The notes below the pieces were generated by a model that worked only from the letters and a program-made list of their open reading frames with translations, had not been told where the DNA came from and made no database searches. DNA of 64,000 nt from Eledone cirrhosa (Eukaryota). Position 1 is the first letter of the stretch; every line of letters starts with the position of its first letter. The translations under genes and the position numbers were made by a program. Positions 31,351 through 39,454 of the stretch are shown here, in pieces. Location: contig OZ024740.1 in the NCBI GenBank assembly GCA_964016885.1, forward strand, positions 272,428,001 through 272,492,000. The letters are read 5' to 3'.

Positions 31351-32125
31351 GATAAAATAATAATATATAAACGACAGCGAAGGAAATGTATTTCTACTAA
31401 TTCCATACCAAGTATTTCTAATTTTCTGATATCTTGAATGTTTTTTCAGTCGTTATCAAGGATCCTGTTTTCGCACATGTTTTAGTTTAAACAATTTAAC
31501 GTTTTTTATGGTTTAGGCGGGAATAAGAGGCAATGCCTACGACAGTCAAACCTTGTGAGGTTGATTAGGTTCAACTTTATTATCTGTAAGGAGCTGGTGG
31601 AGGAATTCCAGTGGGTTAACTTTCCGGAAAGGAGGGATAGGATGAGGTTGTTGTAGTACATATACTCAAGCCACATTTGAAGTCGACGCTGGGCAGGGGC
31701 TGGGGGTGATGGAGAAGAAGTGACAGGCGCATACATTAGGCCTAGTGGGGAGGCGATATGCAACTAGCTAGTTCTATCGGAACACTAACAGCGAAAATCA
31801 TTTATAATTTACCGGATAATGTATTGTGTAAATGACTATTATAGTAATTGTTGATAATTTAAAATATATTGCTATTATAATACAGAATAGCGGCGCTAAT
31901 AGGCGCCGTTTGTGGAATGACTCCAAGTTGGCTAGATGAGTAGTGACACTCTTTAGGGGAATTCCGGCTGTACAGAGAGTGATGTGTGCATGTTTAATTT
32001 TGTTTGTGTAAATGCGAGTCATCAAAATGCATGGCTATTTAAAAGTTATACAAAAACCATCAGCAAGTAAACAAAAACAAAAGGCATTGATGAATGTTTT
32101 GCTAAAAATCTATCATATCTATCTA

Positions 32126-32820
32126 CTGCAAAATCACATACAGACACAAAAGCTCCCCAAGACATACCCCTCCCCAATCACACAGACGATACAACAGATG
32201 AGGCTATCTCGCCATCACCCAGTGAAGACGAGGGAGAACCCCATCGCTCGAAAAGAAAGAAAAGACATCACAAAAGCAAAAAACCAGCAAACACTACCAC
32301 AAATATACAACCACCAACACAAACAACAAAAATATCACAAACAAAACCCCCACCTCCTGAAAACAAAATACCTACAACAAAACGAAAGCACACACAAGAA
32401 CTACAGACAAAAACAAACACAACACAAGAAAATTACACTTACACTTACATAAACACTGAAAACAAAACACTAATGGAGACCATTACGAACGACCCTTCGG
32501 TTTTCACCGAAGGGAAAACTTTCGCCCACTCTATAAAAAATAGCAAAAAAATGAACCTAAAACTGATTAGGGTCCCTATACAAACTTATAGGTCCCTAAA
32601 AGAAACATTTGAGAAGGATGTGGGGAATTCCTGCGTGAAACCACTCAACCGCGTCCTTCTCAAATGCCTCCCCACCCCAGACACCCCCATCCCACCAGAC
32701 CCCACCCCACCAAACATCTGCGTCCCCACCCCGCCGGAAACCACCACCCATCCAGACAACCCCTCCAACACCCCCATGGAAATCGTGCGGCCTGGTCCCC
32801 AGGAGGCGAAGGGTGAGTGA
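32126..32820 (+). pseudogene. Truncated ORF1 C-terminal half of copy B
   Basis: SPSEDEGEPHRSKRKKRH and LIRVPIQTYRSLKETF...KPLNRVLLK align with copy A ORF1. Confidence 0.85.
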
Positions 32821-32853
32821 TCTCTTTTCCTCTTTTAACTTTTCAGCACCAAC

Positions 32854-35800
32854 ATGGCCAATATAAGAGTTGGATGTGTGAACGTACGCGGCCTGGGGAT
32901 GCCCTGGAAACAGGGCAAACTCTTAAACGACCTCAGGTCGCACAGTTTGGATGTGGTAGCCATTTGCGAGTCCAGGATCCACGGCGAGCGACAGCTGGCC
33001 CCCATCTTCGATGACTTTGAGATCTACGCATCTCTCTGTCAACCGGGGGGTGGGGGCGGAGTTGCCGTTTTGCTGCGGAAACACCTGGGCCTCGTAACAC
33101 AGACGGTACATCTGGACCCGGAGGGTCGACTGGTGGTCCTAGACGTTGACGGTAGTGAAGGTGGAGCGTTCAGGCTGGTGGCCGCATATGCCCCATCCGG
33201 GACACCGCGGCCAGACTTCTTCAAACGTCTAGAGACTTTTCTGGGAACGTCCCGCTCCTTGCTTTTAGTGGGGGACTGGAATGGAATCCTAGATGCACGT
33301 TGGGACTATGTGGGAGCATGTCCCGATAAAGGGGGGTGTAACAGCCTCAAACAGTTAATCGACCGATTTGACCTGGCCGATAGATATCGACTAGATTTTC
33401 CGACTGCGCCACTGTGGACGTGGAGTAATCGTAGCGGAACATCTAGATCGTACCTAGATAGGGTTCTAGTTAGAAATAAGGATAGGGACATGTTAAGCTG
33501 TCCACAAATGTTCATGGTTGCCTATTCAGATCACAAACTAGTGACCTGCATGGCCAACCTTGATAGAACCCATAGACAAGGACCAGGCTACTGGAAGCTG
33601 AACTTGTCGTTACCGACAAGCAAAGCCTACAGTAGACGGATTAGCACTTTAGTTAAACAGCACTTGACAGGGGCCATTGTCAACAACAGATGGTGGTACT
33701 CTCTCAAGAGGGCAGTTAGATTAGACTCGATAGTTTTTAGTAAAGAATTAGCGTTAGATAGAAATAGAACCGAGAAGGAACTGGTAGATAAAGTAGAAGA
33801 GGCAATTAGAAGTGGCAACGTAGCCAGCGTGCTAGCAACGAGAACGGCCTTGGACCAGTTCTTCGACGCAAAGCACGAGGGCTGCGTTGTCAGAAGCAAA
33901 ATACGTGCTCTGGGAAACGAGGGAGCCAAAGCTGTTAGCTGGGCCCGAGTGACGGAGGCAAAAAGTGGCAACAAGTCCACGATTCGGTCTTTGAAGGACC
34001 AAAACGGACGCGTGATACGTGAGCCGAAGCAGATGTGTGCGGCTTTTCAGCGGCACTTTGCTCGGCTGTTCGGGGGGAGCGGCGCGCCGGGAGAGGCTAT
34101 GGATTTCGGTCCATACCTCGACGGCCTACCGCGACTCTCGGACAGCGAGGCGAAGTTCTGCGAAAAGCCGATTTCAGCCACTGAGATAGGGGACGCGCTG
34201 AGCCAATGCGGCAAACGCAAATCTCCAGGTCTCGACGGTCTACCCTACGAATTTTACGTAGCAATGCCGGACTTATTCTCCGGTCTCCTGGAAGCGGTCT
34301 ACTGCAACTGGCAACAGAACGGGAGAATTCCCAGTTCTGTAACCGGGGGCGTGGTCACACTAATCAGGAAGGACGAGAATAAGGGGGATGACATAGGCAA
34401 CTTCCGGCCCATAACTCTGCTAAACACAGAGTTACAGATTTTGGCCAAGGTGTTGGCAAAGAGGCTGGCGCTTGTCGTCGAGAACCTGGTGGGAGAAGCG
34501 CAGACATGCGCGATCCCGACCAGGTCCATACACGACAACCTCCACCTCATGCGATACATCATAGAGAGGGTAGGGTGTAAACCCGGCTTCGGTGGGGCCC
34601 TGATCAACTTGGATCAGTCTAAGGCTTTCGATAGGGTTGACCATCGTTACCTGGATGCGGTGCTCGAGGCGGCAGGCTTCGGACCCGTGTTCAGGGGCTG
34701 GATTGCTGCAATGCACAACAGCAACATCTGCTCAAGGGTCAAGGTGAACGGTTACCTCTCGGAGCCGTTCCATATTACGCGATCCATTCGACAGGGATGC
34801 CCTCTCTCCTCCCTTCTGTACGTACCATTACTGCGGAAGCTGGAGCTATTGCAGGGCATCCCTCTGGAACCGGGACTGCGGAAAGCGGCGTCGGCCTACG
34901 CCGACGACGTGACAGTAATGGTGTCGAGCGCCTCGCAAATCGAGAAAGTCGGCACCTTACTAAAGGAATACGAAAGTCTCACAGGAGCGAAGCTGAACCG
35001 GGACAAGTCCATCGGTTTGCAACTCGGATCGTGGAGAGGCAGACCGATGCCTTCCGATGGCGTCGTCGGACGCTGGACGGAAGGACCGGTAAAGCTGCTC
35101 GGGGTCTGGTTTGGTCCGGACCTCCAGGTGGAGAAGAACTGGAACGAAGTGACGGCCAAGGTGTTTGCACTCACCCAGAAGTGGGCCGAGTGCAAACTAT
35201 CCTTGAAAGGTCGAGCGGAGGTGGCGAACACTTTTATAGCGTCCGCCATCTACTACCGCTTGACCGTCGTGCCTTGTCCAGCCAAAACGCTCGCCAAAAT
35301 GGAGCGCGCCCTCTTCCGATTCCTTTGGAAGAGGCGGGCTCCTTTGGTAAGAAGATCCATCTGCTGCCAACACCCTTCTAACGGAGGGCTGGGGATGCCG
35401 TGGTTGACGATGCGCAAACACGCGCTCAGGCTGCGGCATCTCTACGTATTCCTCACCGGACAACCGGTGTGGGCCCCGTTCGTGAGGCGAGCCTTCCCAC
35501 GACTCGTCTCACTGACCGAGCTGCAGTCCTGGGTCAAGCAGAGACCGAGGAAAATGGGCGACTGGCACATCGAATGTGCTCAGGCGCTCACAGCCCTCTG
35601 GCAGGCGGACCCGGCGATCAGTGGAGACTCCACTTCGTCATTCTATAGAGGGTTGGTCCGCAGCAAGTGCGACGACGCGCTCGGTGAAACTCTGGGCGTG
35701 GAGGAAGATGAACTGGCCAGTCTGTTCGGTAGGACCTTCCGCCCGGGACCGATGGACAACTTCCAAAAGTCCCTGGCCTGGCAGTGCTACCGAGGAGCTC

Positions 35801-38628: not shown

Positions 38629-38630
<2 letters not shown>

Positions 38631-39392
38631 GGACTTTCGGCCCAGGACCAATGGACAACTTCCAGAAGTCACTGGCCTGGCAGTGCTACCGGGGGGCTCT
38701 ACCCGTTCGAGAGAGGCTCTACAGACACGGGCGCCCGGGCAGGGATCCCTCAAAAAAGATTTGCCCTAGATGCGTGCGTCACGAAGAAACCGTTGCGCAC
38801 GCATTGGTGCAATGTCCGGGCGTGGCTGATCTGTGGGGCTACGCCGAACGACTGCTGTCGCGGGTGGCGCCGATTAAATTGACCGCCGAGTCCGTGATGA
38901 CAATCAAACCGCCTCCCCTCTTCACAAAGGAAGCAAAGGAGGTTTTTCTGTGCGTAATAGCCATGTTGAAAGAGGTTGTTTGGTGGACACGATTGAAAGG
39001 TCTGAGGTCAGGCAACTTCCTCTCTGGCCATAGTCTGGTCTACTTCTTCCGATATCACTTCGGAAGAAGGATAAGAATGGAGAGAGAGGTGCTTGGCCAC
39101 AGGCAGTTTTATGAAAGGTGGGTGATAGTGGCGAGAATGGCTCGTGTAAATGGGCCTTCTCTGTATACCATCCTGTAGGTAAAGAAGTAAAGGAGAGGGG
39201 AGCACCTTCTCCATGTGCGCCCCGGGCAAAGGATTGCACACTTTTTCGGGGGTGTGTGCAACCCCCATCACGTCCCCTCCCTTTTGAGGTTATTTTCGAT
39301 TATTTTCATGTTACACCCTTTTTACTCGATTATATGTAAACTCCCCCTTTGTATTTGTCCCTTCTTTTTATGCCTTTATGGTAAATAAAGAA

Positions 39393-39394
<2 letters not shown>
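38629..39394 (+). mobile_element. Tx1-like copy D, 5'-truncated
   Basis: Starts at RTFGPGPMDNFQ. Stop at 39178, 3' UTR, then (ATCT)n at 39393-39453. Confidence 0.92.

Positions 39395-39454
<60 letters not shown>

Follow-up and report, generated by a model that had tools for sequence, protein, structure and literature searches.

The stretch analyzed here (hereafter the window) comprises 64,000 nucleotides of the Eledone cirrhosa genome (assembly GCA_964016885.1, contig OZ024740.1, positions 272,428,001 to 272,492,000, forward strand) and harbors two head-to-tail stacks of a Tx1-like retrotransposon family that lacks long terminal repeats (non-LTR), the copies of which are separated by ATCT repeats. 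Using the full-length copy as query, a search of this one window, with its two stack loci, identified six pieces of the family, all on the forward strand and confined to two clusters: stack 1 (7272-13656), formed by copies Z, A and A', and stack 2 (32108-39452), formed by copies B, C and D (Table 1). Both stacks are interstitial, with other DNA flanking them on either side within the window. An earlier note on this DNA had described B, C and D as co-oriented, 5'-truncated copies with only ATCT repeats between them, and both the sequence and the repeat scans agree with that description. The same note spoke of three copies in one array, which is accurate for stack 2 and omits stack 1 with its three further copies.

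Table 1. Copies of the element and ATCT tracts in the two stacks (ORF, open reading frame; RT, reverse transcriptase; UTR, untranslated region).
Feature	Position	Strand	Remarks
(ATCT)22, head of stack 1	7272-7359	+	Repeat scan; preceded by unique DNA; ~55 bp of degenerate repeats (ACCT/ACAT type) come next
Copy Z, 3'-end relic of a diverged subfamily	7415-7503	+	AATAAA at 7495; homology clear from 7465; 5' edge approximate
ATCT tract Z/A	7504-7523	+	5 units, one of them AACT
Copy A, apparently full length	7524-13231	+	ORF1 7726-9561; ORF2 frame open 9495-12998; AATAAA at 13217 in 3' UTR
(ATCT)3 between A and A'	13232-13243	+	Repeat scan
Copy A', 5'-truncated 3' end	13244-13620	+	TCT microhomology (3 nt) at 5' junction; identity with B 99%
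(ATCT)9, end of stack 1	13621-13656	+	Repeat scan
Imperfect ATCT 18-mer, head of stack 2	32108-32125	+	One edit from perfect; not element-derived (public contigs)
Copy B	32126-36519 (5' edge 32125/6)	+	Cut in ORF1 (remnant to 32820); ORF2 32854-36279 open; AATAAA at 36507
ATCT tract B/C	36520-36533	+	14 bp
Copy C	36534-38517	+	Cut in RT; one in-frame stop 37461-37463; AATAAA at 38504
ATCT tract C/D	38518-38629	+	112 bp, two interrupted units
Copy D	38630-39392	+	Last 181 ORF2 codons and 3' UTR; AATAAA at 39384; TA microhomology at 5' junction
(ATCT)15, end of stack 2	39393-39452	+	Continues into compound ATGT/CT/TA microsatellite

ATCT repeats at the flanks of the copies

All six copies present the same orientation relative to the ATCT repeat. 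Their 3' flanks are ATCT in every case and their 5' flanks are direct ATCT in five of six, that of Z being degenerate. The four inner 5' junctions all fall inside the tract of the preceding copy, with microhomology of 1-3 nt readable at the 5' junctions of A', C and D, and both stack heads start at ATCT sites that no family 3' end precedes. Outside the stacks, 18-mers within one edit of (ATCT)n occur at 30 of 50,170 positions, all of which belong to a single site. AT runs are approximately 50 times more common there than AGAT-class runs (108 runs totaling 3,148 bp versus 2 runs totaling 56 bp), and the window search detected no family copy beside any AT run. The CT runs near stack 2 (39515-39552) are not located at junctions. 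Target-site duplications are unreadable inside a repeat of this kind.

Public contigs of runs X1, X4 and X5 were compared with positions 31850-36750; for a fourth run, X21, a sample of about 1 in 100 raw reads contributed no match, which carries no weight either way. In a contig of X4 the match to B starts at 32125, and the contig extends beyond it by 83 letters that differ from the flank in the window. The cut point of B is thereby fixed, and the ATCT upstream of it does not belong to the element. In X1, one contig matches the unique flank at every position up to 32125, beyond which 12 letters depart from B, as would fit an allele devoid of the B junction. Four contigs each of X1 and X5 pass from B at 34573 into C at 36535, fixing the cut point of C, and no contig among the matches listed for the three runs bridges the B-C junction. 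Tail-to-head joints in X5 (36533 to 33666 and 36534 to 36507, among 12 of 259 rows) are no more than leads, because spurious joints can arise at 88% likeness. Contig pieces matching the family number 32,267 and 100,613 in two of the runs, figures that do not represent a copy number. Metagenome and genome scans returned no member of this family with its flanks, the matches being 21-52% identical, and the 3'-end pattern had 0 matches in viral contigs.

The tails follow a common plan in 6/6 copies: AATAAA, three to five bases, one unit that varies among subfamilies and then the ATCT repeats, with no poly(A) in any of the six. The first unit past AATAAA reads ATCT in D and Z, ATTT in A and ACAT in C, with ATAT shared by B and A'; one or two additional bases past AATAAA occur in both C and A. 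Hence, the earlier claim that AATAAA-GAAA(T/C) runs straight into ATCT without poly(A) is right about the poly(A) and too simple about the transition. Given that the first unit is subfamily-specific, with ATAT common to B and A', part of each tract is encoded by the element. The ATCT present before the heads of both stacks, where no family tail precedes it, makes a model in which the repeat is only a tail insufficient, and the repeat is therefore probably both tail and target. A conserved 3' stem-loop was unsupported, with only four pairs and no two-sided change among five tails, and folding of single tails yielded a z-score below -2 in one of five. At its 5' end, A opens with GATAGA, which is complementary to the repeat in reverse, and can form a small hairpin with the upstream tract (7518-7531) that was not significant against shuffled sequences.

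The stacked copies belong to separate lineages

Overall, copies A, B, C and D are 81-87% identical in their coding sequence (B-C 85.8%, B-D 80.8%, C-D 82.0%). The ratio of nonsynonymous to synonymous substitution rates (dN/dS) is 0.16-0.21 among B, C and D and 0.14-0.24 in nine of ten copy pairs, the tenth (B-A') being near-identical. In the 3' UTRs, identity extends to 64-66% of alignment columns among B, C and D, and to 64-75% among A, B, C and D. This combination of identity and dN/dS values indicates that the copies diverged as working lineages before insertion. The cut points are also distinct, falling in ORF1 for B, in the RT for C and near the C-terminus for D. Judged by their divergence, B, C and D represent distinct lineages instead of having arisen by tandem duplication, and the proposal of independent insertions by different subfamilies is backed by the 81-86% coding identity of these three copies, their dN/dS values and their distinct cuts. 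Copies B and A', in turn, present only 3 differences in ~375 bp and yet lie in separate stacks with different cut points, so the B subfamily must have inserted twice recently.

Private changes across 566 codons (synonymous/nonsynonymous) amount to 44/40 in A, 81/26 in B and 31/14 in C, and the ratio differs between A and B (p = 0.001), with values of 0.09 for A versus C and 0.42 for B versus C. An older age of A was considered on these grounds and is not established, since the frames of A are fully open.

The element is a two-ORF, L1-group retrotransposon

ORF2 matches the Pfam domains Exo_endo_phos, RVT_1 and zf-RVT and nothing else, with no RNase H, and a separate ORF1 precedes it. The motifs of its apurinic/apyrimidinic endonuclease (APE) and of its RT are intact, and its closest PDB match is L1 ORF2p (E-value 2e-48), with R2 at 5e-22. 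By these features the family is classified as an L1-group APE-RT non-LTR retrotransposon with two ORFs. ORF1 contains one CCHC knuckle (zf-CCHC E-value 5e-4; 20.4 bits, just under the Pfam cut-off of 20.8), such a zinc knuckle being a feature of ORF1 in the Tx1 clade, and its Atlas look-alikes (score 0.89-0.92) bear zf-CCHC and ZCCHC3 RNA-binding domains. Both frames of copy A are open, but ATA stands at the position of the ORF2 ATG of B, and copy B carries a 12-bp in-frame deletion in the RT. The sole named close homolog, from Argonauta hians, is 63% identical, which by itself makes an octopod host likely.

Phylogenies of the RT were inferred as a quick tree of 59 rows (2 short rows dropped) and as a tree of 31 rows without a named outgroup, with no named Tx1 or L1 reference among the rows. 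Copies A and B cluster with P0001 and next with a group of related elements, hereafter the sister lineage (bootstrap 100). Together, the family and its sister lineage form a long-stemmed clade of their own, the nesting of which depends on the root. Outside the sister lineage, the top RT scores among the 15 loci scored belong to a group that contains U2- and U1-inserted elements (36-39% identity), and the tree rows include elements ending at matches to the small nuclear RNAs (snRNAs) U2 (L001, L007) and U1 (L121, L018) or lying beside 5S (L123). Membership in the Tx1 clade is likely.

In A, B and the homolog from Argonauta, the endonuclease hairpin region, presumably the counterpart of the L1 loop linked to target choice, shows resemblance and no variation in length; it differs in the sister lineage. 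In L1, a loop in the endonuclease has been reported to influence target choice (PMC1950540).

Several observations accompany these results. A splice-donor-like GTRAGT lies at the end of ORF1 in A (9523-9560), B (32813-32846) and the sister lineage (L086, ~12415), with a pyrimidine tract after it in A and B, and a reading of the sequence suggests that its removal would not join ORF1 and ORF2 in frame. Among the tree rows, Keno-like elements with an A-rich tail and then U2 snRNA were found in L001 (4675-4885) and L007 (5815-5977), and Keno is a Tx1 APE element that inserts in U2 (PMC4494074). Tx1-like APE elements lie at or beside U1 snRNA matches in L121 (3036-10137) and L018 (9202-9356). In L121 the A-rich tail runs into a 5'-truncated U1, which suggests a U1-targeting family; for U1, a compilation of 2015 names only the DNA transposon Dada-U1 (PMC4640811). 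A further element adjoins a 5S rRNA match in L123 (2726-2844).

Probable serial insertion into ATCT tracts and its alternatives

Taken together, it is likely that this Tx1-like family targets (ATCT)n and re-inserts serially into the tracts at the tails of earlier copies. The anatomy of the copies, their orientation, flanks and cut points and their separate subfamilies are observed; nicking, RNA pairing and serial order are what we infer. The target would be (ATCT)n/(AGAT)n, with the endonuclease nicking the AGAT strand. The transcript would end shortly past AATAAA and thus hold a few AUCU units, which could anneal to the AGAT end at the nick and so serve as the primer site for reverse transcription; such pairing would account for both the fixed orientation and the absence of poly(A). 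Synthesis would mostly stop early, the upstream tract then being joined via 1-3 nt of microhomology. Each insertion would split a tract and leave ATCT on both sides, so that later copies of any coexisting subfamily could land adjacent to it and stacks would grow serially. The earlier note had proposed strand-specific GATA targeting with a target left at each tail, which is consistent with the orientation of all six copies and the ATCT at the heads, but extends to two loci only.

A number of results weigh against this reading. There are only two independent stack heads, the head site of B is imperfect, and Z lies ~55 bp of degenerate repeat away from the perfect tract, with an uncertain edge. 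Microsatellite-specific Tx1 elements have been defined by more than 20% of flanks being the target (PMC4494074), and the flank counts here cover two loci in one window. Among the 18 loose contig ends listed out of 4,688, none gave a clear ATCT 5' flank and most look like subfamily variants, and an (ATCT)10 at 48147-48186 is unoccupied. The element-encoded first unit of the tails makes the repeat partly a tail, and private changes do not establish age differences between stacked copies. Lastly, the sister lineage stacks without a microsatellite in 51/51 cases, and stacking in the clade hence does not need ATCT.

The sister lineage, with ~40% amino-acid identity to the family, is represented by 41 overlapping loci (L081-L119, L122, L125; contigs CAXXMW0100000xx) on contigs that are filed under a bacterial metagenome-assembled genome and look like animal DNA. 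Its arrays are head-to-tail, in one orientation and mostly made of near-complete units with a period of 6.4-6.9 kb. A microsatellite follows 0 of 51 distinct 3' ends, and the 41 loci contain no ATCT run of at least three units and no telomeric TTAGGG pair. The next unit, be it whole or 5'-truncated, joins without any repeat, and joins marked by a truncated unit put its start ~17 nt past AATAAA. An inverted repeat is visible by eye just before AATAAA in sister tails; a consensus fold did not recover it, and the alignment of eight tails presented no two-sided change.

These arrays raise the idea that the clade in truth targets the 3' end of its own copies, immediately beyond the polyadenylation signal. 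The sister lineage would build its pure arrays, tens of kilobases long, in this manner, and the octopod branch would have captured a GATA tail with which it seeds and recolonises GATA microsatellites genome-wide, switching between self and microsatellite targets; we give this scenario a small chance. A related reading, which we consider unlikely, is that the element recognizes earlier copies by their 3' end directly after AATAAA, ATCT being only the tail of this lineage and the heads old eroded tails or occasional mimic sites. The repeat-free joins of the pure head-to-tail sister arrays support it, as does the fact that four of six Eledone copies abut an earlier tail. Nevertheless, no family 3' end is detected ahead of either head site. 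Moreover, the sister arrays share tail variants within contigs and repeat one truncated junction twice (L115), which points to DNA-level amplification, and tandem duplication of this kind may explain them.

The choice of target might instead be set by pairing alone, with AUCU tails annealing to AGAT DNA ends made by a relaxed nuclease or existing breaks. This would predict the same orientation and flanks, and is in line with the element-encoded unit that opens the tail and with the dependence of L1 integration on factors besides nicking (PMC1950540). The APE catalytic motifs are intact, however, and target choice in Tx1 elements has been ascribed mainly to the endonuclease (PMC4494074), which makes this alternative quite unlikely. 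Template jumping, in which a stack arises in one event as the RT leaves one RNA and resumes at another's 3' end and the inner tracts are RNA tails, has been cited for non-LTR elements as jumps or switches (PMC4494074) and would agree with the two short inner tracts (12 and 14 bp) and with inner junctions located exactly at tails. It is highly unlikely here, given that it requires three different subfamilies per event, twice, and still needs ATCT at both heads, and that the C-D tract is long (112 bp) and interrupted and lesions differ between neighbors. Misassembly, or tandem duplication of one copy, is very improbable: ATCT tracts can mis-join contigs and the B-C junction is unbridged among the matches listed, but neighbors are only 81-87% identical and under purifying selection, there are two stacks, and the cuts of B and C recur in contigs from outside.

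Other repeats in the window

A Tc1/mariner-like remnant (~39600-40480; HTH_32 and HTH_48 matches) with an inverted repeat (39553-39709 with 40417-40573) lies just downstream of stack 2, and a fragment of another non-LTR element at 16954-17790 presents a zf-RVT match and an apparent restriction-like endonuclease C-terminus. A ~190 bp repeat resembling a short interspersed nuclear element (SINE), which we presume to be akin to octopus SINEs, is abundant (1120-1980, 19230-19970, 25870-26440, 30700-31370, 55120-55540 and others) and is itself often arranged in head-to-tail runs of two to four copies.

Comparison with known systems

The Tx1 elements Kibi and Koshi, which target (TC)n and (TTC)n, and crocodilian Tx1 elements in (TTCC)n/(TTTC)n are, like the Eledone family, APE-type elements residing in microsatellites (PMC4494074, PMC3812793). 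The target lists of these two sources do not contain (ATCT)n as far as their text shows, the figure labels and supplements of PMC4494074 aside. The Eledone junctions are ATCT in all copies, not (TC)n or (TTC)n, and in the tree the family falls apart from the single fish-labelled element, Kibi and Koshi themselves not being among its rows. Waldo and Mino belong to the R1 clade, and Dong to the R4 clade. Together with Togen (TG), Waldo (ACAY), Mino (AC) and Dong (TAA) are likewise non-LTR elements specific for short repeats, that of Waldo also being a tetranucleotide (PMC3812793, PMC4640811), but they represent other clades and other repeats than the Eledone family. A literature search found no family targeting ATCT/GATA, which may nonetheless already be listed in Repbase Reports, in Kojima and Fujiwara 2004 or in the figure labels and supplements of PMC4494074. 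The Octopus vulgaris annotation reports 80 L1-Tx1 consensus sequences, and the words "GATA" and "target" are absent from its main text and one readable supplement (PMC13282606); PMC9115989 deals with RTE elements. Microsatellite targeting and tandem stacking at targets are thus known, and an ATCT/GATA target seems to be unreported.

Regarding the stacks, the earlier note had likened them to telomeric HeT-A/TART arrays. The likeness holds for the layout, since HeT-A, TART and TAHRE also form head-to-tail arrays of related subfamilies; these, however, occupy chromosome ends, carry poly(A) tails and replace telomerase, whereas the Eledone stacks are interstitial, lack poly(A) and have repeat spacers (PMC10088271). 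TRAS/SART and Tx1-1_ACar offer another parallel, with several lineages inserted in one orientation and forming arrays in a short tandem repeat, in their case telomeric (PMC10088271); the Eledone repeat is an interstitial microsatellite and its stacks are short and mostly composed of 5'-truncated copies. Tandem SINEU-3, mobilised by Tx1-Mar, and Utopia-1_NVit likewise arise by sequential insertion at a regenerated target (PMC4494074, PMC4640811), although what they insert into is a Mariner element or U2 genes, not ATCT. Because the Eledone stacks are interstitial with repeat spacers, TRAS/SART and tandem SINEU-3/Utopia are, in our analysis, closer models than HeT-A/TART.

The present family is abundant, its young copies can be nearly identical (B and A', 99%), and it would extend the range of repeats used by target-specific long interspersed nuclear elements to (ATCT)n/GATA. 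If the targeting is genuine, it would provide an APE domain of natural origin that recognizes a repeat of four nucleotides, as well as a clean way to tell whether target choice is governed by the endonuclease or by RNA pairing, and GATA markers in these animals would often adjoin a mobile element. No principle is overturned, since microsatellite targeting and stacking at the target have both been described in the systems compared above.

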